Notes under the pieces: model-generated
Databases searched by the model: none
What the model was told of the DNA's origin: nothing
The model's input: the letters and a program-made list of their open reading frames with translations, nothing else
Position numbers and translations under genes: made by a program
In this document: in pieces, positions 11,678-46,430 of the stretch
Position numbering within the stretch: the first letter of the stretch is position 1
Layout: every line of letters begins with the position of its first letter
DNA from: Candidatus Woesebacteria bacterium GW2011_GWB1_39_12
GTDB lineage: Bacteria > Patescibacteriota > Microgenomatia > UBA8517
Assembly: GCA_000993405.1 (NCBI GenBank)
Contig: LBWB01000002.1
Coordinates: 1-57,294, forward strand
Length of the DNA stretch: 57,294 nt
Direction: 5' to 3'

Positions 11678-13723
11678 ATGAACAACGATCTTATATTTAT
11701 TTTTGGGTGGTGGCTGAATTTCTTTTTTGCCGGACTAATTAATCTACCCCTGACCATATTCATCTTTAAAAAGTTTAGGGACGCAGGTTATGGGTTTTCT
11801 AAAACCTTTGGGTCTTTATTAATCGCCTATATTATCTTCTTAGGATCAATTACTCATCTTTTTGGTCTTACCCAAACCTTTATGTATGCAGTAGTCGCTT
11901 TGGTCTTTCTTTTCAATGTCATACTTTTTTTTCGACATAAAGATAAGCTTCTTTCTTTAATTAAAAAAAATCTTCGCATCATGATTTTTCAGGAAATTTT
12001 ATTTACGTTAGGACTTATCCTTTGGTCATACGTCAGAGCTCACCAGTCGGATATAAACGGATTAGAAAAATTTATGGACTTGGGTTTCATAAATTCAATT
12101 CTAAGAAGTAAATATCTTCCGCCTCCTGACATGTGGTTTAGCGGAAAACCCATCAATTATTATTGGTTTGGGCATTTTTGGGTCGCAGTTGTGACAAAAT
12201 TTTCCGGCATTCCTTCTTACATAACTTACAATTTGATGTTGGCAACAATACTTGGTTTCACACTAACGGGTGCCTTTTCAATTGCCTCAACCCTAGTCAA
12301 AGCGCTAAATCTGAAGATCAATAAAAGGGCAGTTCTTGCAGCCGGAATAATATCGGCAATACTACTAAGTTTTGCAGGAAACTTTCATACACCAATTTAT
12401 ATTTTAAAGGAGGGAAGAGATAAATATTGGTATCCTGATGCAACCCGCTTCATCGGCTATAATCCCGAAACAAACGATAAAACCATTCACGAGTTTCCAA
12501 TCTACTCTTTTGTAGTATCAGACTTACACGCTCACCTCATAAACTTACCTTTTGTCCTTCTTTATATTGCTCTACTCTATAATTTTTTAACTAATTTCAA
12601 ATCATTTGGAAATTGGAAATTGGAAATTGGAAATTTTTCAAAACTAATACCGCTGGGTTTTATTCTGGGCGTTATGTTTATGACCAGCGCTTGGGATTTT
12701 GGAAATTATGCGCTGACAACGGGTGTTGTGCTAACCCTGTTCACGCTAAAACGGAAGGGGCTAAATTTCTCTTCTGTCTTTGAAATTGGCGTATCTACGG
12801 CATCAATATTACTAATAGGTTTAGTGGTAAGTCTCCCATTTCTTCTAAATTTTGAATCAATTGCTCAAGGAATTGCTTTAGTAAAAGCAAGGACACCCGT
12901 TTGGCAGCTAGGAGTTCTCTGGGGATTTCCGGCATTATTAACACTCATCTTCGGACTGGTTCTATTAAAGAAATGGCCAAAACTTAAAAAACCGGATATC
13001 TTCGTTGCCGGCCTTTTGGTTTCTTCCTGGATTTTAATATTTTTACCCGAAGTGATTTACGTAAAAGATATCTATATTGCTTCTCATCATAGAGCCAATA
13101 CTATGTTCAAGCTCACATACCAAGCATTCGTGATGAGTTATCTGGCAAGCGGTTATATCGTAATCAGAAGTCTGACATTACTTAAAAAGTTTTTTCCCAG
13201 ACTTTTATTATCCTTATTTTATTTATCAATTTTTGCCGCACTTCTTCGCTATCCCTTTATCGCGACCAAATCCTATTATGCGGATTTGAAAACCTACAGA
13301 GGCTTATCCGGCGAGACATGGCTTGAAAACCAAAATCCGGATATTTTTAAGGCGATTGTCTTTCTTAGGGAAAATGTTAAAGGACAACCGGTAATTCTAG
13401 AAGCACCGGGAGATTCATACACAGAATTCAATTCAATTTCTTCGTATACCGGCCTACCGACGGTTTCCGGATGGTTTGTCCATGAATGGCTTTGGCGTGG
13501 AACTTCCGAAATTCCTCAAGCCCGTGTCGCTGACATCACGCAAATTTATACCTCGGAAGATCCAGTGCTTACTAAAAATCTTTTGAAAAAATATAACGTC
13601 TCGTATGTTATTATCGGTTCTTTCGAACGAGAGAAGTACTCAAATTTAATTGAGGAAAAATTTACTAAACTTGGTCAAAAAGTCTTTTCCTCACCAACAA
13701 CAAAAATTTACCAGATAGACTGA
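11678..13723 (+). CDS. DUF2298 (YYY-type) membrane protein, probable GT-C
   Basis: EKFMDLGFINS, PPPDMWFSGKPINYYWFG, EFPIYSFVVSDLHAH and HEWLWR motifs. Confidence 0.8.
   Translation: MNNDLIFIFGWWLNFFFAGLINLPLTIFIFKKFRDAGYGFSKTFGSLLIAYIIFLGSITHLFGLTQTFMYAVVALVFLFNVILFFRHKDKLLSLIKKNLRIMIFQEILFTLGLILWSYVRAHQSDINGLEKFMDLGFINSILRSKYLPPPDMWFSGKPINYYWFGHFWVAVVTKFSGIPSYITYNLMLATILGFTLTGAFSIASTLVKALNLKINKRAVLAAGIISAILLSFAGNFHTPIYILKEGRDKYWYPDATRFIGYNPETNDKTIHEFPIYSFVVSDLHAHLINLPFVLLYIALLYNFLTNFKSFGNWKLEIGNFSKLIPLGFILGVMFMTSAWDFGNYALTTGVVLTLFTLKRKGLNFSSVFEIGVSTASILLIGLVVSLPFLLNFESIAQGIALVKARTPVWQLGVLWGFPALLTLIFGLVLLKKWPKLKKPDIFVAGLLVSSWILIFLPEVIYVKDIYIASHHRANTMFKLTYQAFVMSYLASGYIVIRSLTLLKKFFPRLLLSLFYLSIFAALLRYPFIATKSYYADLKTYRGLSGETWLENQNPDIFKAIVFLRENVKGQPVILEAPGDSYTEFNSISSYTGLPTVSGWFVHEWLWRGTSEIPQARVADITQIYTSEDPVLTKNLLKKYNVSYVIIGSFEREKYSNLIEEKFTKLGQKVFSSPTTKIYQID
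12606..12633 (+). repeat. Perfect heptamer tandem repeat (TTGGAAA)x4 inside a CDS
   Basis: Read directly; encodes GNWKLEIGN. Confidence 0.9.
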
Positions 13724-17923: not shown

Positions 17924-19026
17924 TGGAAATAAAGAAAAATCCAGAAAAGAATAAAGAGACTCTTAGTAAGGCTTCTCCCCACCCACTTCAATCTCACGAG
18001 TGGGCGGAGTTTAGGAAGGCTTGGGGAAATGAGGTCTTGGAAACAAAATACGGAATAATTATTCTACATAAAATCCCTCTTACAAAATACAAAGTTGGAA
18101 TGTTTATAAAAGGACCAGTTCCCACCGCCAAAATGTTAGCCGACTTACGACAGATGGCTAAAAAAAATAACTTACTTTTTATCAAATTAGAACCGAATGT
18201 GGCGGTGGAATTTCCAATTTCCAAATCCCAAATTCCAAATAAATCCAAAATAACAAATCCCAATTTCAAAATACGATATTCGAAAGAAAAAGTTATAAAC
18301 TTACTCAAAGAAAACGGTTGTGTGCAGGGAAAAACTCTATTTACTCCAACCTCTTTTTGGATAGATCTTACTCCTTCCGAAGATGAATTATTGAAAAACT
18401 TTTCTTCCAAGACTCGTTACAACATCCGCTATGCCCAAAGAAAGGGGGTTGAAGTTGTTGAAGACAACTCCAATAAAGCATTTGAAAAATATATCGAGTT
18501 AACTCGGGAAACAGTCGAGCGGCAGGGATTTTACGCCCACACCGAATCCTACCATCGGTTAATGTGGAAATATTTACACCCCACTTCGCCAAGGCTTCGA
18601 GGGGCAAGCCAATCACTTGCCTCGCCAAAGCTTCCAAGCGAAGGCGGGCCAATTGCTCGCTTGCTTACCGCTAAATACAATGACGAAATTATTACTTGCT
18701 GGATTATCTTTGTTTATAAAGATTTCCTTTATTACCCTTATGGGGCATCTTCCGAAAAGTACAAAAACGTAATGGCAAATAACTTAATGATGTGGGAAGC
18801 AATTCGCTATGGTAAAAAATTAGGACTAAAAACTTTTGATCTTTGGGGAAGAGAGCCCGGCAAAGGTTTTACAAAATTCAAAGAAGGCTACAACCCGCAA
18901 GTTGTGGAATTTATCGGAACTTGGGACTTAGTAACATCTCCTTTATATTGGCCGTATAGGACCGCCGAATTCCTTCGTTGGCAAATCTTGAGAACTAAAA
19001 GCAAGTTTGTGGAACCAAAGTTCTAA
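17923..19026 (+). CDS. FemAB/FemX family peptidoglycan bridge aminoacyltransferase
   Basis: HPLQSHEWAEF, KTRYNIRYAQRKG, YPYGAS, FDLWG and FKEGY motifs; carries two repeat-derived insertions. Confidence 0.85.
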   Translation: MEIKKNPEKNKETLSKASPHPLQSHEWAEFRKAWGNEVLETKYGIIILHKIPLTKYKVGMFIKGPVPTAKMLADLRQMAKKNNLLFIKLEPNVAVEFPISKSQIPNKSKITNPNFKIRYSKEKVINLLKENGCVQGKTLFTPTSFWIDLTPSEDELLKNFSSKTRYNIRYAQRKGVEVVEDNSNKAFEKYIELTRETVERQGFYAHTESYHRLMWKYLHPTSPRLRGASQSLASPKLPSEGGPIARLLTAKYNDEIITCWIIFVYKDFLYYPYGASSEKYKNVMANNLMMWEAIRYGKKLGLKTFDLWGREPGKGFTKFKEGYNPQVVEFIGTWDLVTSPLYWPYRTAEFLRWQILRTKSKFVEPKF

Positions 19027-21986: not shown

Positions 21987-22054
21987 AAGAAGAGGAATCT
22001 CTATATTCGCCTTGCAAGGAGAAATCTTTAAATACAGTTGTGCAATCTATTTTA

Positions 22055-22186
22055 TTACTTATCACTCCTGCAAAATAGTTTATACTCACAATTTTCGCAG
22101 AGCATACTGCCGGAGCATTTGAAGTCGCTCTCTTCGATTTGTTTTTTATAATCTTCAATCATTTTTTTTGCTTCTTCCAATTCTTC
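22055..22186 (-). pseudogene. Orphan duplicate 3' tail of the helicase-nuclease gene
   Basis: Translates to EELEEAKKMIEDYKKQIEESDFKCSGSMLCENCEYKLFCRSDK*, homologous to the C-terminus encoded at 22778-22912. Confidence 0.9.
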
Positions 22187-22340
22187 CTTTAGGTAGCATA
22201 AAATCTCCAAATTTCTTATCTCTTATAAAAGCAATAAATAACCTCTCCTTTTTCTTTCTAACAACCGCCCCACCCGCTGATACAGAAGTGGGGAAATTTT
22301 TGTCTTTTGGTTTAATATACCAACTTTCGTCAATTTTCAT
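22155..22340 (-). pseudogene. Truncated NUDIX hydrolase (5' part only)
   Basis: SAGGAVV...LPKGRI stops before the Nudix box; sequence switches to the helicase-tail duplicate at about 22186; GGAGG SD before ATG 22340. Confidence 0.8.
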
Positions 22341-22341
22341 A

Positions 22342-22764
22342 TTAAACATTCCTCCAAATCTTCCTGAGTTCTTTTAGAGCGCTTTGATAAGAACTACAAA
22401 ATAAATATGGAAAACTCGACAAATGCTTAGCCCTCTTCTCGAAATCAAAAATTTCTTTGTTTCTTTTAAGATATTTAAATTGCTCTCTGTTTGCTAAAAG
22501 TTCGCTCTCTAATCTTACTTTTGGAAAGATCCAATATCTTAATCCCTGTATCAACCAATTACCACTACTTATTTGCTCTAAATGAGTTCTTTCATGAATC
22601 AGTACACCCACACTTTCTGGTTTCGGTTTATCTTTATATAAATCATTGTATATATCCGGCCGAAGATATATTTTATTTGCAAAAACGAAACCTTTAAAAA
22701 TTTTGCTTAATGGAAAAACTGATTTTTTAATTTCGTATTTTGACTCTTTTATATAATTACTCAT
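22342..22764 (-). CDS. Hypothetical protein with HExxH zincin-like motif
   Basis: VLIHERTHLEQ. Confidence 0.6.
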   Translation of the reverse strand: MSNYIKESKYEIKKSVFPLSKIFKGFVFANKIYLRPDIYNDLYKDKPKPESVGVLIHERTHLEQISSGNWLIQGLRYWIFPKVRLESELLANREQFKYLKRNKEIFDFEKRAKHLSSFPYLFCSSYQSALKELRKIWRNV

Positions 22765-22777
22765 TTATTAACCATGT

Positions 22778-25693
22778 TTAATCACTTCTACAAAATAATT
22801 TATATTCACATTCTTGTTCATCGCAAAGGTAACCGTGCGAGCATTTAAAGTCCGATTCCTCAATTTGTTTTTTATAATCTTCAATCATTTTTCTTGCTTC
22901 TTCCAATTCTTCTTTCGTCCGAGTGGTTGTAACAATCTGTGGTGTATCAAAATACATTAAAGAAAGTTTTACTTTCTCGGGCTTTCTATCAAAAGGAAAC
23001 TCCAGTATCGATGTTGCGGCTAAACCATAAATAGAAAGCTGCAAATCTTTTTCCGCCTCGTTTTGAGATAGAGGAGTTGCGCCCGTTTTATAATCGATAA
23101 TTTCCAATTCATCACCATGAACATCAACCCTGTCAATTTTACCGCCAGCTCTTAGATTATTGAGTCGGATCATGAATGATTGCTCCAAAGCAACGGGCTT
23201 TATTTTCGGGTCAAAAAAATTGTCCAAATAATATTTTAAAAATCTTTTTGCTTTATCAAAAGAACTTTCCTCATGCGATTTACTTAGGTAACCTTCTCTG
23301 ATCCAGTTTTCTTCAAGAGTTTTATAGATTAAATCGACGGTTGGCTTTTGTCCCTGACCGATTTTCTCGTAAAAAGTTTTCATTGTTAGATGAAAAGAAT
23401 TACCAAAACTTTGTGAAGAAGTTGGTGGAGTCGGAAGCTTATAAATATATTTTAATTTAAAGTGAAGGGGACAAATTCGGAAGGTTTCAATTTGAGAATA
23501 GGAAAGATAATCAATGTGCAATGGTGTACGGTGTACGGTAATCGGTGTACTGACAGAGAGGGGCCGGTAATCCAAAAACGATAACTGTTCACTCTTTACT
23601 GTCGACTGTTCACTAGCAATTGCTTCCTCCCCCAGAGCTTCAAAAATAAACGGTGATAACTTTTTTTCGCGCTTTCCCTCTCCATAATAATCCGCTGCGG
23701 TAAAGAAAAGCTTGTCTTTTGCTCTCGTCATGCCGACATAAAAAAGTCTTCTTTCTTCTTGAAGATGAAAGTCACCTACAGGTAAAACTTCTTTGATAAG
23801 CTCATCCGGAATAGGGATTTGTTCCCTTCTTTCAATTGTCGGGAAGCGCTGCGACACAAGGTTTACTAAAAAAACAACGGGAAACTCGAGCCCTTTGGCA
23901 GAATGAACTGTTAAAATATTCACAGCGTTTTCTTTGGTCCAGTCAATGTCTGCTGCCAACGGAGATTCACCAAGCTCTGAAGAAAGTTCTATCCAATCAG
24001 TAACCGCTCCAATGGTAGCGTCTTCATGATCAACTTCATAAGTTTTTAACTTGTCAAAAAGTTTCGAAACATTTAACGCTCTTTTTTCTGCTTCCGGTGT
24101 ATCGGGGTTAAGAAGTTTTTGAATTAGCCCCGCATCTTCAAGAAAATAGTACAAGAGCTGCCCGGCGGTTTCTTTCTTAACTAGTTTTAGATGCTTTTCA
24201 ATTATCCCTATTATTTTTTTAACTTTTTCCTTCGTTTCATTACCTATGTAAATATCTTCTGTTTTTTCACACGCCTCAAAAAGGCTTAAGTTAAACCGTC
24301 TTGCATAATTTGCAATTCGTATCAGATCTTTCGCTTCTATACCAAAATAGTCAATCGATAAAACACGATAAAAAGAAACGGAGTCATCAAAGTCATTAAG
24401 CACTTTTAAATAAGAAAGTAGATCAATTATTTCCGGCTGCCTAAAAAGTCTTCCGGGTCCCAAAAACTGATAGGGGATATTGTGACGGGACAATGCCCGT
24501 ATAAAAGGTTCGGAATGATTATTTGCCCTGACTAAAATTGCAAAATCTTTCCATACATATTTTTCTTCGTCACTTAATCGCTTAATCACTTTAGCCACCT
24601 CCTCCGCCTCGTTTTCGACTCGGTCTTTATGAATGAAGATAACCTGCTCGCCGCCCTTGGGGTTTCTAACACTTACCAAATTTTTATCTATTCCCAATTT
24701 ATCTTCCAAAGTATCAGGTGCGTTGTGACGGATCAGTTTATAAGCCGGATCCAAAATTGCCTGTAGCGAGCGGTAGTTCCTGATTAAAATCACCGTTTTT
24801 ACATTTTTGTAATCTTTCTGAAAATACAAAATATTGGAAATGGCAGCTCCCCTAAATTTATATATTGACTGCGAGTCATCACCAACTACGGTAAGATTTA
24901 CTTTTTTTGATGGTGGCACAAGAAGTTTTAACAATTCATATTGTGCGACATTTGTATCCTGAAATTCATCAACCAATACATATTTAAACAGTTTTTTATA
25001 TTTTTCCAAAACATTCGGTCGCATTCTGAAAAGTTGCAGTACTTCAGTTATTAAATCTCCAAAATCCATCACCCCTTCCTTTACTTTCAGCTCTTCATAC
25101 TTCTTATATGCACTCGCTAATTCTTCCCATTTGTCTAATTCAATTACTTCTTCCTTGCTTTGCTCTTTGTTCTTTGCTCTTTGTTCTACCCAGCGAATAT
25201 ATTCGCTTGGGTTTATATCCTCGTCTTGAAGACGAGAAAAATGCTGAATCATCCCACCAATAAACTTTGTCGGGTTTCCTAGAGGTCTGAAATAATTAAG
25301 TTCAAATTTAAAAAGATTGTGGCGGATCAATTGGATAGTTTCCGCCTCAGTCATTAATTTATATCGGGGATCAATGCCTATGTTAAGGGAGGAGTCGCGT
25401 AAGACGCGATCGCAGAAAGAATGAAACGTCGAAATCCACATTTGGGTATAGCCATAGGGCATTGCCACATCAACCCTCTCTTCCATCTCCAAAGCTGCTT
25501 TCTCGGTAAAAGTTAGGGCTAAAATTTCCGAAGGTTTGGCTAAGTTCTTCTCTATCAGATACTTAATCCGCTCTGTTATAACGGTAGTCTTTCCGGTCCC
25601 CGCCCCCGCAATAATTAAAAGAGGCCCACTTTTGTGTCTAACCGCCAATACTTGTTCTTCGTTTAATTTTTTACCTGAAGCTTTTGCTGCCAC
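22778..25693 (-). CDS. UvrD-type helicase fused to a C-terminal PD-(D/E)XK nuclease (AddA/AdnAB-like)
   Basis: SF1 motifs (AGAGTGKT, VDEFQD, SAKGLEF); nuclease LSYSQI..CP, GKIDRVD, IIDYKTG; terminal Cys cluster consistent with an Fe-S ligand set. Confidence 0.88.
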   Translation of the reverse strand: MAAKASGKKLNEEQVLAVRHKSGPLLIIAGAGTGKTTVITERIKYLIEKNLAKPSEILALTFTEKAALEMEERVDVAMPYGYTQMWISTFHSFCDRVLRDSSLNIGIDPRYKLMTEAETIQLIRHNLFKFELNYFRPLGNPTKFIGGMIQHFSRLQDEDINPSEYIRWVEQRAKNKEQSKEEVIELDKWEELASAYKKYEELKVKEGVMDFGDLITEVLQLFRMRPNVLEKYKKLFKYVLVDEFQDTNVAQYELLKLLVPPSKKVNLTVVGDDSQSIYKFRGAAISNILYFQKDYKNVKTVILIRNYRSLQAILDPAYKLIRHNAPDTLEDKLGIDKNLVSVRNPKGGEQVIFIHKDRVENEAEEVAKVIKRLSDEEKYVWKDFAILVRANNHSEPFIRALSRHNIPYQFLGPGRLFRQPEIIDLLSYLKVLNDFDDSVSFYRVLSIDYFGIEAKDLIRIANYARRFNLSLFEACEKTEDIYIGNETKEKVKKIIGIIEKHLKLVKKETAGQLLYYFLEDAGLIQKLLNPDTPEAEKRALNVSKLFDKLKTYEVDHEDATIGAVTDWIELSSELGESPLAADIDWTKENAVNILTVHSAKGLEFPVVFLVNLVSQRFPTIERREQIPIPDELIKEVLPVGDFHLQEERRLFYVGMTRAKDKLFFTAADYYGEGKREKKLSPFIFEALGEEAIASEQSTVKSEQLSFLDYRPLSVSTPITVHRTPLHIDYLSYSQIETFRICPLHFKLKYIYKLPTPPTSSQSFGNSFHLTMKTFYEKIGQGQKPTVDLIYKTLEENWIREGYLSKSHEESSFDKAKRFLKYYLDNFFDPKIKPVALEQSFMIRLNNLRAGGKIDRVDVHGDELEIIDYKTGATPLSQNEAEKDLQLSIYGLAATSILEFPFDRKPEKVKLSLMYFDTPQIVTTTRTKEELEEARKMIEDYKKQIEESDFKCSHGYLCDEQECEYKLFCRSD

Positions 25694-43338: not shown

Positions 43339-43402
43339 ATGCGCCGTGGGGGGTGCGTTCTTATACTATATTCTAAATACTATATTCAAAATTCCGATTA
43401 AA

Positions 43403-43423
43403 GAGCTAATTTGAAGACAAATT
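43403..43423 (+). repeat. 21-bp direct repeat, copy 1
   Basis: GAGCTAATTTGAAGACAAATT. Confidence 0.92.
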
Positions 43424-43436
43424 CGATCTTTGACTT

Positions 43437-44183
43437 TCATTTAATCTTGGCTAGTCGAATCGCGGTCCTCCAAATTAAATACATATCTAATCCAAGTGAG
43501 GCGTTTTCATAATAAAACATATCAAGATGGTAATTATCTTGCACCCATTTGAGTGGGCTTCCAATTGTTTGAGATAACCCAGAAACTCCAGTTTTACCTG
43601 AGTTATAAGCCTCTACCCACCTTCGATATCTTTCCGAAGACCACTTGTTTTCCAACTCTCTGGCTTCATCCAAAGGAATTGCCCTGATGCCGAAAAAGGA
43701 CATTTTCCCTAACACAACTTGATATAGCTGCGGCAACTCCTCCAGTTGAAACTTTCTCATAAATGATCCCAAAGCCGTATTTCTAGGATCATTATCAGGC
43801 GTAAGTCCTCCGGCAATATCTGAGTTAACTCTCGAACCTTTATCCGAATTTGGTTTCATACACCTTATCTTCCAAACAGGAAGATCATTAATCGCATAAT
43901 CTCCAATTTTTGAAGCTCTCATATGAACGAAGAATGGCTCACTTCCATCCTCAATCAATTTTGCCGTTGCCAGACCTATAATAAATGGCGTGGCCAAAAC
44001 TGAGGAAGGAACACCTATTGCATAGTCAAGAGCCTTTTTCCAGTCACTATTAATATATTTATCCCCTTTAGGTGGGCACATATTATTCAATATTCTGGCA
44101 ATTTCTGTGTCTCCTCTTCTCAAATAACCATCAATTTGATCAAGATGGCTGATGGGGTTTGATAATACTTCGGGATTTGCCAT
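43437..44183 (-). CDS. Bacterial sugar transferase (WbaP/WcaJ-like phosphoglycosyl transferase), divergent
   Basis: KKALD, WKIRCM, MRKFQLEELPQL..V..GKMS..G, G.SG..Q and DM.Y..N.SL.LD motifs. Confidence 0.8.
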   Translation of the reverse strand: MANPEVLSNPISHLDQIDGYLRRGDTEIARILNNMCPPKGDKYINSDWKKALDYAIGVPSSVLATPFIIGLATAKLIEDGSEPFFVHMRASKIGDYAINDLPVWKIRCMKPNSDKGSRVNSDIAGGLTPDNDPRNTALGSFMRKFQLEELPQLYQVVLGKMSFFGIRAIPLDEARELENKWSSERYRRWVEAYNSGKTGVSGLSQTIGSPLKWVQDNYHLDMFYYENASLGLDMYLIWRTAIRLAKIK

Positions 44184-44225
44184 TAAATTTTATTATGGGT
44201 TGTATTTTATCATAAGTGATCTTTG

Positions 44226-44246
44226 GAGCTAATTTGAAGACAAATT
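44226..44246 (+). repeat. 21-bp direct repeat, copy 2
   Basis: GAGCTAATTTGAAGACAAATT. Confidence 0.92.
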
Positions 44247-44259
44247 CATTTCCTGAATT

Positions 44260-44553
44260 TTATTCAAACTTTACGGTGAGTCTTGAGTCTAAAGCTTGAG
44301 CAATTCTCTTTAATAGAGAAATAGATGGCTTGGAATTTGCCGTTTCCAGTTTGGAAATCACCGGTTGTTTGGTACCAACCCTTCTCGCAAGCTGTATCTG
44401 GGTCAGATTCTTTTTCTTTCGGGCTTTTATTAAACTGTCTGCCAAGATAAACTCGGGCTCCAATAACTCTGCCACTTTTAAAAATTTTTTATCTTTTAAA
44501 AGCTTTTTTTCGTAAGTTTTCCAGCTGGTTAATTTTCTGACATCTCTTTTCAT
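44260..44553 (-). CDS. XRE-family HTH antitoxin (HigA-like)
   Basis: LIKARKKKNLTQIQLARRVGTKQPVISKLE; downstream of a RelE-like toxin. Confidence 0.85.
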   Translation of the reverse strand: MKRDVRKLTSWKTYEKKLLKDKKFLKVAELLEPEFILADSLIKARKKKNLTQIQLARRVGTKQPVISKLETANSKPSISLLKRIAQALDSRLTVKFE

Positions 44554-44591
44554 GCCTAAAATATATCAAATGTATTATATTATGTCAACTC

Positions 44592-44930
44592 TCAAATAAA
44601 TTCTTTAGCTCTTTTCTGGGCAAGTCTAATTTCTTTAACTAAAGTTTTTTGAGATTTTTTAACAATGATATGAAGCAATAAAAAAACGTCAGACTTATGA
44701 AGAGTGAAGAAAATTCGGATTTGTTTTTCCCCGACGGTTCTTAATTCAAAAATATCTGGTTTTCTTGCGACTTTTTTAACGGACTGATTTTTCAAAAGTT
44801 CCAAACCATGTTTTTCCAAAACTCTTATGCTGTTTCTTACTCTTCCTCTTGTAATTTCATCCAGATTATCGATAAATTCCGCAATTATTTCCCGACCGGA
44901 GGAGGTTTTATAGAGGAAAACCTGATGCAT
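44592..44930 (-). CDS. Type II toxin, RelE/HigB (Gp49-like) family
   Basis: IFELRT...RIFF...LLH...KKSQKT...I.LA..R pattern. Confidence 0.85.
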   Translation of the reverse strand: MHQVFLYKTSSGREIIAEFIDNLDEITRGRVRNSIRVLEKHGLELLKNQSVKKVARKPDIFELRTVGEKQIRIFFTLHKSDVFLLLHIIVKKSQKTLVKEIRLAQKRAKEFI

Positions 44931-44951
44931 TAATTCATATTAACATTCCTG

Positions 44952-44972
44952 GAGCTAATTTGAAGATAAATC
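44952..44972 (+). repeat. 21-bp direct repeat, copy 3 (2 mismatches)
   Basis: GAGCTAATTTGAAGATAAATC. Confidence 0.88.
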
Positions 44973-44996
44973 CCCCAGTGTTATACTTCTTCAGCT

Positions 44997-45683
44997 GTGA
45001 CAGCAGAAAATAAAATTGGAATTTTTGGGAACGGTCCTGGGATTGAATTTATAAGAGATATTACTTGTAGTCCCCTGTTTATATTTAAATACGAAGTTGG
45101 TGGACAAGAAAATCTGGCCAGTATCCCAACCTCACCGGCAATATTATATTTCTTCCCACATACAAGTCATCTGGATCCATTCTCTGTTAGATTTGCCAGC
45201 CAGAGAGATGTTCGCAAGTATGAAATGTTTCCGGCCGCCAAAGATTACTGGTACCAAAATAGGATTAGAGAGATGGTTCATTCGCTATTTCTTAATACTT
45301 ATCCCATGGAAAGACAAAATATAAGTGGTATGTCAGACGCGATGGAGATATCCCGAAGAGTCCTTGATGCTGGATTGAGTTTGGTTATTGCTCCGGAGGG
45401 TACAAGGACTTTAAATCCCGATGAAGAACGAATACTCCATAATGGTCCAACCGATTTAGCTCTACAGGGCGGTTATCCAATAATTCCCATAAGACTTAGG
45501 GGGTTTGCTGATATCATGCCGAAAGGACATCTTCCGAAATTGTCTGACGGACTACACCGCCATCAAGTGTCAGTGATATTCGGTGAACCGATATCAGTAC
45601 CAAAAGTAGAGAAATATTCTGTTCGGCGTATAGAAAGAAGAAATCTAACTCGTCTGCTTAGAGATAAACTCCTGACAATGTAA
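44997..45683 (+). CDS. PlsC-family lysophospholipid acyltransferase
   Basis: HTSHLD (HxxxxD), AAKDYW and APEGTRT motifs. Confidence 0.82.
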   Translation: MTAENKIGIFGNGPGIEFIRDITCSPLFIFKYEVGGQENLASIPTSPAILYFFPHTSHLDPFSVRFASQRDVRKYEMFPAAKDYWYQNRIREMVHSLFLNTYPMERQNISGMSDAMEISRRVLDAGLSLVIAPEGTRTLNPDEERILHNGPTDLALQGGYPIIPIRLRGFADIMPKGHLPKLSDGLHRHQVSVIFGEPISVPKVEKYSVRRIERRNLTRLLRDKLLTM

Positions 45684-45694
45684 ATTTCACTCCC

Positions 45695-45715
45695 GAGCTA
45701 ATTTGAAGACAAATT
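45695..45715 (+). repeat. 21-bp direct repeat, copy 4
   Basis: GAGCTAATTTGAAGACAAATT. Confidence 0.92.
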
Positions 45716-45899: not shown

Positions 45900-46430
45900 A
45901 TGGCTAAACAAAAGGAATTAAATCATTTTCATGTCGGATTTCTTGCGGTTGCAAGCATTTTTTTGTCTGTTGTCTTTTTTGCCCAAACACTTAACTTAAG
46001 TTATTCTAAAAATGAGGATAAAGGCTTCGATCAATATGGCTATAACTACAATGCAAGGCTTTTTAATGGCTTGGCAGATGGAGTTGACAGAGTGGCTGAT
46101 GATAAACTCTGGGGCGATACGACTTATGCAAAGGATAAGCTGGTAATGAAGTGGTCAGATGCATGGCATCAGGCACGCTTCGGAACTCTGTCTTGGAACT
46201 GCGAGGCGTGGACAGACAACGAGTGGAATGGAAAGGTGCCGGAAGGAAGCGGAGAAACTTGGCATTATAAAATCGTCTGGGTGGGACCACAGCTTGAAGA
46301 TAGTAGTTGTTGGAGAGAAGGAGGATACCCAATCTGGGGACAATTCGAGGTAATATTCTCGCAAGGCACTGTTGCAAACCAGCATTTCTGGGACACACAT
46401 GCGTATCCGGCAGGTTACGGAGGATTTTAA
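45900..46430 (+). CDS. Secreted or membrane-anchored Trp-rich hypothetical protein
   Basis: SD GGGGTG, N-terminal hydrophobic helix, W/G-rich domain. Confidence 0.65.
   Translation: MAKQKELNHFHVGFLAVASIFLSVVFFAQTLNLSYSKNEDKGFDQYGYNYNARLFNGLADGVDRVADDKLWGDTTYAKDKLVMKWSDAWHQARFGTLSWNCEAWTDNEWNGKVPEGSGETWHYKIVWVGPQLEDSSCWREGGYPIWGQFEVIFSQGTVANQHFWDTHAYPAGYGGF

Follow-up and report, generated by a model that had tools for sequence, protein, structure and literature searches.

What are four copies of one 21-bp sequence doing between unrelated genes of a bacterial chromosome? The question is raised by a stretch of 57,294 nt (positions 1 to 57,294 of contig LBWB01000002.1, assembly GCA_000993405.1; hereafter the window) from Candidatus Woesebacteria bacterium GW2011_GWB1_39_12, in which a sequence-only reading had noticed a short repeat around three small gene modules and had taken it for the recombination site of a gene-cassette capture system. 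Woesebacteria are minute, uncultured inhabitants of groundwater. Bacteria of the Candidate Phyla Radiation (CPR) have very small genomes, and the gain and loss of their accessory genes are poorly understood. We find that modules of one or two genes lying between co-oriented sites assort independently, with the breaks in similarity falling within the site, and that the cassette-array system is real and widespread in Candidatus Woesebacteria. The four repeats of the window are probably the joints of one such chromosomal gene-cassette array, which would represent a new site-specific cassette platform across this group. No paper on the motif, on integrons or gene cassettes in Woesebacteria, or on cassette arrays in Woesebacteria or Patescibacteria, was found in the literature searched.

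Co-oriented repeats and the modules between them

The window was searched for the motif GAGCTAATTTGAAGACAAATT with up to three mismatches allowed, and exactly four matches were obtained, at 43403, 44226, 44952 and 45695, all on the plus strand and spaced 823, 726 and 743 bp apart; the copy at 44952 (GAGCTAATTTGAAGATAAATC) differs from the motif at two positions. By chance 0.02 copies would be expected in the window, and none of 100 shuffles reached four or more. A weight matrix derived from 153 related sites scores the four at 29.5-39.9 bits and, when applied to the whole 57 kb in search of decayed additional sites, returned nothing else at or above 8 bits. Motif search and weight-matrix scan thus both bear out the description of four co-oriented 21-bp repeats bounding three modules, and Pfam agrees with the cargo that had been read from the translations (a sugar transferase, a RelE/HigB-XRE pair and an inverted PlsC-like acyltransferase). 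The array and its immediate flanks are listed below in the prevailing direction of its genes, that is, along the minus strand; here and throughout, related loci carry L numbers and protein clusters, as defined in this analysis, carry c numbers.

45900..46430, plus strand: proximal flank gene (176 aa), no Pfam family; outside the array
45695..45715, minus strand: junction site R4, AATTTGTCTTCAAATTAGCTC on the minus strand, 39.9 bits; the site that opens the array in the prevailing direction of its genes
44973..45694, plus strand: module 3, an inverted cassette with a PlsC-type acyltransferase gene (44997-45683, plus strand; Pfam Acyltransferase, 1.8e-13)
44952..44972, minus strand: junction site R3, GATTTATCTTCAAATTAGCTC on the minus strand, 29.5 bits; both mismatches lie in the left arm
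44247..44951, minus strand: module 2, a two-gene toxin-antitoxin cassette (HigB/Gp49-like toxin and XRE antitoxin)
44592-44930, minus strand: HigB/Gp49-like toxin gene of module 2 (Pfam Gp49, 1.5e-16)
44260-44553, minus strand: XRE antitoxin gene of module 2 (Pfam HTH_3, 7.8e-14)
44226..44246, minus strand: junction site R2, 37.2 bits; 14 nt past the XRE stop codon
43424..44225, minus strand: module 1, a single-gene cassette with a sugar transferase gene (43437-44183, minus strand; Pfam Bac_transf, 1.8e-28)
43403..43423, minus strand: junction site R1, 30.2 bits; last site of the array, 14 nt past the sugar-transferase stop
43339..43402, minus strand: stretch past the terminal site R1, with ~35 nt (GGAATtTTGAATATAGtAT..AGAAT) common to L091 and L101
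42979..43338, plus strand: distal flank gene, MazG-like (119 aa; Pfam MazG); outside the array

The placement of the sites relative to stop codons needed one amendment: only two copies (43403 and 44226), and not three as had been stated, follow a minus-strand stop, each at 14 nt. R3 lies 22 nt upstream of the HigB start, while R4 is found 12 nt past the plus-strand acyltransferase stop and 184 nt ahead of the 176-aa flank gene.

Is this arrangement peculiar to one chromosome? A scan for the exact motif, with one genome per species, recovered it in six metagenome-assembled genomes of Candidatus Woesebacteria and in two low-GC ones labelled Gammaproteobacteria, whose contigs match Woesebacteria-type contigs; exact copies in these genomes are confined to one or two contigs. 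Metagenome contigs scanned in the same way yielded at least 80 loci carrying the motif. Viral contigs gave no motif matches, and a phage origin was rejected on this ground. Counts of sites, pairs and modules given here and below cover loci among the matches listed, with array members called at four mismatches or fewer. The related genomes, which the sequence-only reading had proposed to search, hold the motif always in the form of arrays, with up to nine copies per locus and with two or more copies at 52 loci, and these arrays adjoin different core genes in different lineages. All 89 non-redundant pairs of neighbouring sites are co-oriented and none is opposed. Neighbouring sites are separated by a median of 692 bp (interquartile range 546-831 bp, range 107-3497 bp), with complete genes inside: among 79 simple intervals, 47 hold one forward gene, 21 hold two forward genes (mostly toxin-antitoxin) and 11 hold one or two inverted genes.

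All-versus-all comparison of site pairs revealed homology on the left side only in 61 cases, on the right side only in 33 and on both sides in 8, and similarity ended exactly at the motif edge in 52/61 of the former and 31/33 of the latter (83/94 in all). The modules fall into 66 types, the recurrent ones having about as many different neighbours as occurrences. Module 2 of the window matches L091 7126-7908 at 81% identity over 788 nt; the homology opens with the initial base of one motif and ends with the final base of the following one. The neighbours of the module in L091 are unrelated to those in the window (a Peptidase_S51 gene upstream and, called by eye from its N-terminal motif, an SGNH-like lipase downstream); the left edge of the window's homology to L091 falls at R3. 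Similarly, module 3 shares 74% identity over 756 nt with L054/L007, beginning at the motif there, and in those loci adjoins a different HigB/XRE pair and a GNAT-like gene (by eye). For the sugar transferase of module 1, no homologue was found among the other arrays compared.

The flanks tell the complementary story. A flank composed of c1-c62-c19, 94.7% identical over 3.1 kb between L068 and L085, is followed in L068 by a glyoxalase cassette, in L085, L030 and L044 (independent assemblies) by an M48 peptidase, a BrnT/BrnA-like pair (by eye) and two further cassettes, and in L093 by c109, c5-c6 and c97 in turn. In both L044 and L093 the c97 cassette is terminal; it is 100% identical over 406 nt between the two, and the break falls exactly at the motif. 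Beyond its 176-aa gene, the window carries homologues of the genes that flank the arrays of L068 and L069 (encoding proteins of 141 aa and 123 aa and a GT39-like protein of 458 aa); the three loci have these upstream flank genes in common and no cassette. Module content and order therefore vary while flanks stay fixed, as had been anticipated, both in the c1-c62-c19 contigs and in the set formed by the window, L068 and L069. Neither of the patterns named beforehand as speaking against a cassette system was seen: modules of the window have other neighbours elsewhere, and the motif is not limited to sites upstream of genes.

Such shuffling might be counterfeited by metagenome assemblers that join strains at a short repeat, given that all the related sequences are metagenome assemblies and that the repeat could confuse small k-mers. 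We hold this to be extremely improbable. The repeat (21-32 nt) is shorter than reads and final k-mers, and chimeras are unlikely because arrangements recur in independent assemblies: the window sequence is found in at least 24 groundwater assemblies, each with the same three modules, and other arrangements recur across samples (L030 = L085 = L044, L010 = L090, L032 = L091 and L007 = L054).

Comparison with integrons and other repeat-bounded systems

If the repeats are joints of a cassette array, to which known system do they belong? The closest parallel is offered by chromosomal (sedentary) integrons. As there, each cassette has one co-oriented site and consists of one or two genes set tight against it; the genes share a prevailing direction, with a minority inverted; many cassettes encode toxin-antitoxin pairs and small enzymes with no known role; close relatives carry different array contents between flanks that stay in place; and sites are highly uniform within arrays, as are the Vibrio repeats. 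The co-orientation and independent assortment that characterise integron arrays are both found here (89/89 pairs; 83/94 breaks; fixed flanks and variable cargo). Conversely, the site is 21 bp long (32 at most), as against 55-141 bp for attC. In agreement with the sequence-only reading, none of the four intergenic regions at the joints of the window contains the attC boxes RYYYAAC and GTTRRRY as a pair, and evidence for a folded single-stranded site is lacking in the Woesebacteria arrays. An adjacent intI gene, attI site and common promoter Pc were not found, as judged from inspection of the window and from signature tests on the related loci. Finally, many of the Woesebacteria cassettes apparently have a promoter of their own, formed together with the site.

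Short sites and small modules are also known from Acinetobacter, in which pdif sites of 28 bp (11-6-11) must alternate in direction (C and D modules), many dif modules carry higBA-type toxin-antitoxin genes, and small modules shuffle between replicons (PMC13141974). The Woesebacteria arrays share with them short sites, small shuffling modules, toxin-antitoxin cargo and a recombinase that would be encoded elsewhere. The repeats might hence be dif-like sites used by the host Xer recombinases, with the modules as miniature elements lined up in tandem at the dimer resolution site, as in integrative mobile elements exploiting Xer (IMEX) and in the Acinetobacter modules. A recombinase encoded away from the array, a cargo resembling that of dif modules (higBA and other toxin-antitoxin pairs, small open reading frames; PMC13141974) and a short asymmetric site with a partial dyad would all fit this explanation, which we nevertheless consider decidedly improbable. 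All sites are direct here (0/89 opposed), whereas dif modules need alternating orientation (PMC13141974), and the dyad has a 7-4-7 layout, extended on the right arm, instead of 11-6-11. Dif modules are plasmid-borne, whereas the Woesebacteria arrays are flanked by chromosomal core genes, and by different ones in different lineages. The GC skew is negative on both sides of the window's array with no change of sign, indicating that the array does not lie at the terminus, where IMEX are located. Nor does anything in the dyad resemble what we take, from the dif consensus, to be the conserved XerD arm.

The chromosomal setting of the array is ordinary: the window encodes helicases, MetRS, MurJ, a penicillin-binding protein, alpha-2-macroglobulin and glycosyltransferases, and the dnaK operon, nusA and infB lie just past its left end. 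The MazG-like flank gene occupies the same position in 24 near-identical contigs.

Composite islands of the staphylococcal cassette chromosome (SCC) and IMEX arrays likewise consist of tandem units between direct repeats of ~18-30 bp, some of them without a recombinase of their own and served in trans, and their units, 3-60 kb long, are located at the terminus or at the end of one particular gene. Units in the Woesebacteria arrays are ~0.7 kb long, the arrays are found at several chromosomal places, away from the skew switch, and a large serine recombinase remnant is present beside only one of them. Clustered regularly interspaced short palindromic repeats (CRISPR) can be told apart by their spacers, which are non-coding and ~26-72 bp long between repeats of 21-48 bp, whereas the spacing here is 107-3497 bp and encloses complete genes; no CRISPR repeat of Rfam was matched at the motif.

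A further candidate is a selfish or structural repeat akin to repetitive extragenic palindromic (REP) sequences and bacterial interspersed mosaic elements, which would have spread in a variable region and have no part in gene movement. These, too, are short palindromic repeats located just past stop codons, and the motif, palindromic, ~21 bp long, placed at the ends of genes and furnished with an unpaired tail that is conserved, would fit such an element. However, REP copies are dispersed, whereas the Woesebacteria copies are confined to arrays (four adjacent copies in 57 kb), are all co-oriented and coincide with the homology breaks in the 83/94 comparisons mentioned above; moreover, Rfam gave no credible match and the dyad shows no hairpin covariation (see below). 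We regard this explanation as very unlikely. The arrays work like sedentary integrons and the dif modules of Acinetobacter, yet belong to neither.

The site, its signals and a possible mechanism

What does the site itself reveal about its function? Read in the main direction of the cargo genes (the minus strand of the window), its consensus is (T)AATTTG-TCTT-CAAATTAGCTC, asymmetric and ~21 bp long. The internal dyad first described in the window, AATTTG-AAGA-CAAATT, is real and extends to TAATTTG/CAAATTA where the next base permits. The right arm, CAAATTAGCT, is well conserved and the left arm looser; in the related sites the right arm and the AGCT that follows it are nearly invariant, variation being greater at positions 1-3. 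The dyad folds weakly (-4 kcal/mol), and at its six core pairs the 153 sites display 0 compensatory as against 63 pair-breaking changes, which indicates that the sequence is conserved and not a hairpin. Given the lack of covariation, the weak stem and the absence of a terminator-like site at any motif, a hairpin function was rejected. Conservation of this kind would suit a protein that reads double-stranded DNA.

Genes are packed closely against the site. In 75/104 cases the end of an upstream forward gene falls in the interval from 8 nt ahead of the site to 18 nt within it, and 19 of the 104 stop at a TAG within the site and 17 at a TAA that shares the first two bases of the site. On the downstream side, forward genes begin 17-34 nt past the site. 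Rare variants at positions 1-3 follow the left flank (10 vs 0).

Two peculiarities of the site deserve mention in passing. A long form, AATTTGTC-CCTGGGACGTTTGACGTCC-TTCAAATTAGCTC, with a GC-rich hairpin of 19 nt inserted in the loop, is present at three independent loci (L054 ~2178-2217, the same in L007; L030 near 740-775; L072 near 580-615; all in forward orientation), with two degenerate copies in L040 and L043. At all four sites of the window the centre reads GAAGAC (e.g. 44236-44241), which we take to be the recognition sequence of the type IIS enzyme BbsI; its cut, at 2/6 nt, would come to lie within the conserved AAATT, which we mention as a lead only.

A conserved site for a double-stranded DNA-binding protein could also be regulatory, and this is the main rival explanation: the motif would combine a promoter -35 element with the palindromic operator of one accessory-gene regulator, and the modules would be reshuffled by RecA-type homologous recombination between the 21-32 bp copies, for example after uptake of DNA from a related strain. 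We judge it unlikely, though by no means negligible. The arrangement TTGTCT-17 bp-TAnnWT is found at 50% of the sites that precede a forward gene, as against 14% of those that precede a reverse gene; about half of the forward cassettes open with CGGAGTAAAAT, so that a -10-like hexamer is found at 17 bp from the site's TTGTCT. In ~25/51 such sites an ATG follows the -10-like hexamer at 6-10 nt, most often at 6, with no Shine-Dalgarno sequence between the two, suggesting that leaderless mRNAs may be common among these cassettes. Hexamers of the TTG type resembling a -35 face both directions within the site. In the window, promoter-like matches that make use of the motif lie ahead of the acyltransferase start (TTGAAG, inside R3, 16 bp, TATACT) and at the sugar transferase (TTCAAA-18-TATGAT), and the absence of compensatory changes, like that of a recombinase (see below), would also be expected of an operator. 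A role of the site in expression is what we infer from geometry only.

Examples of TTGTCT-17 bp-TAAAAT followed after 6-7 nt by ATG, with no ribosome-binding site, were seen at L009 1861 and L099 2375 (forward orientation). Within module 2, the toxin-antitoxin intergenic region (44560-44588, minus strand) contains a near-consensus promoter, TTGACA-17-TATATT with an upstream TG, so that the XRE antitoxin may be transcribed on its own.

Several features are difficult to reconcile with regulation as the primary function of the motif. Its direction is independent of that of the genes, with 0/89 pairs opposed despite 11 inverted modules, which argues against a purely gene-linked promoter or terminator; a constant direction is the expected product of circle integration by site-specific recombination, which would make any promoter role secondary to that of a joint. 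Sites are also present where there is nothing to regulate, such as R1, which sits between convergent genes and has no downstream gene to serve, and the motif is missing from every other promoter in the 57-kb window. Near-invariance at 19/21 positions, a figure to be read with the caveat that the search was seeded with exact matches, is unlike regulon operators. The promoter-like matches in the region are at chance level (9 vs 9.1 expected), and the gathering of genes into arrays is left unexplained by a regulatory element.

Under the interpretation that we favour, that of a site-specific cassette array, a sequence-specific recombinase encoded away from the array would recombine two sites on double-stranded DNA. 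Recombination between direct repeats would excise a module as a circle carrying one site, and the reverse reaction would insert this circle at any other copy of the site; all sites of an array would consequently be co-oriented, irrespective of how the enclosed genes are oriented. Insertion would at the same time create a promoter for a leaderless mRNA from the -35-like hexamer of the site and the -10-like hexamer of the cassette. More specifically, we put forward as a tentative proposal, to which we give slightly less than an even chance, that Woesebacteria (and perhaps other CPR lineages, with other motifs) possess an independently evolved capture platform, the recombinase of which is non-adjacent and maybe of an unrecognised type, and in which the site is half a promoter, so that transcription of a cassette into a leaderless mRNA begins as soon as it is inserted. 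If this were true, single genes (toxin-antitoxin, small hydrolases, acetyltransferases, SET-domain methyltransferases) would be swapped between strains at a dedicated hotspot, providing a second, independently evolved answer to the problem that integrons solve, and the 21-bp directional site would be short enough for use as a tool. The motif would also provide a simple marker for the flexible gene pool of these organisms in metagenomes, and the recombinase would be an obvious one to seek by phylogenetic profiling.

A number of observations weigh against a dedicated recombinase. None was recognised by inspection among the open reading frames of the 57-kb window, among the Pfam matches of ten genes at and near the array or in 10 kb of sequence past the left end of the window (past the right end, sequence reaches ~700 bases). 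Signatures of tyrosine and serine recombinases, sought in 937 kb of related loci with regular expressions, which are weaker than a profile search, were likewise absent, with a sole exception noted below. The at least 24 near-identical contigs of this strain showed neither an excised circle nor an empty site, and no cassette had been gained or lost among them. Public runs, taken as assembled contigs, gave only matches of other arrays to the motif, and no RNA run covered the region. In one very recent case, that of a cassette which L068 and L099 have in common at 100% identity, similarity breaks off 17 nt beyond the motif, and the 21-32 bp of identity that the sites provide are near what homologous recombination can use. 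The crossover is not placeable from rare variants, since independent ones are too few and only positions 1-3 clearly track the left flank. Conservation of the core is, in addition, overstated because all sites were found from an exact 18- or 21-mer seed. Taken together, the break outside the motif, the missing recombinase and the unmapped crossover keep homologous recombination a live rival. Of the original claim, the repeat as a joint at which cassettes recombine is upheld by the reshuffling and by the breaks at the motif; the part that called for a dedicated recombinase rather than homologous recombination is not.

The exception among the related loci, a fragment of a large serine recombinase, lies just past the end of the array in L004 (6463-7242, locus coordinates). 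It has a weak Pfam match to Zn_ribbon_recom and lacks the resolvase domain, and it is a single case.

Cargo, array ends and other features of the window

What do the arrays carry? By Pfam, the cargo includes HigB/XRE, SET-domain proteins, M48 and S51 peptidases and DUF5674; reading the translations by eye added the toxin-antitoxin types RelE/ParE, VapBC, HicAB and BrnTA, as well as histidine phosphatase, HAD, Nudix, GNAT, glyoxalase, carbon-nitrogen hydrolase and EamA proteins. Cargo of this kind is typical of integron arrays. The commonest unit, present at 16 loci and nearly always inverted, encodes a SET-domain protein (Pfam SET, 8e-19) with a Cys-rich tail, and three genomes have it as their final unit ahead of the flank. 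As the commonest neighbour it was considered as an array-adjoining recombinase candidate and was rejected, being itself a cassette. Examples of these cassettes, nearly always inverted and assigned by Pfam SET, are as follows.

L002 263-874: SET-domain cassette
L006 765-1376: SET-domain cassette
L071 8430-9125: SET-domain cassette

The small genes c27 and c28 form one module in L082 (9354-10078, forward orientation), and in L065 (10843-11552) they occur in reverse order with the motif between the two genes.

The ~35-nt stretch past the terminal site, GGAATwTTGAATATAGwAT..AGAAT, is kept in three lineages (the window at 43345-43402, and, in forward orientation, L091 after 8583 and L101 after 1552) and may be a terminal element or a promoter.

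Elsewhere in the window, the last ~45 codons of a UvrD-like helicase gene (22778-25693) are repeated ~726 bp downstream with 84% nucleotide identity (copies at 22052-22204 and 22778-22930, minus strand). Between the two copies lies an open reading frame (22342-22764, 140 aa) with an HExxH motif; apparently a gene has been inserted into the 3' end of the helicase gene, the end of the target being duplicated in the process. Short tandem repeats of the GGAAATT type are found at 12592-12635 and 18209-18252, in inverted orientation and 5.6 kb apart.

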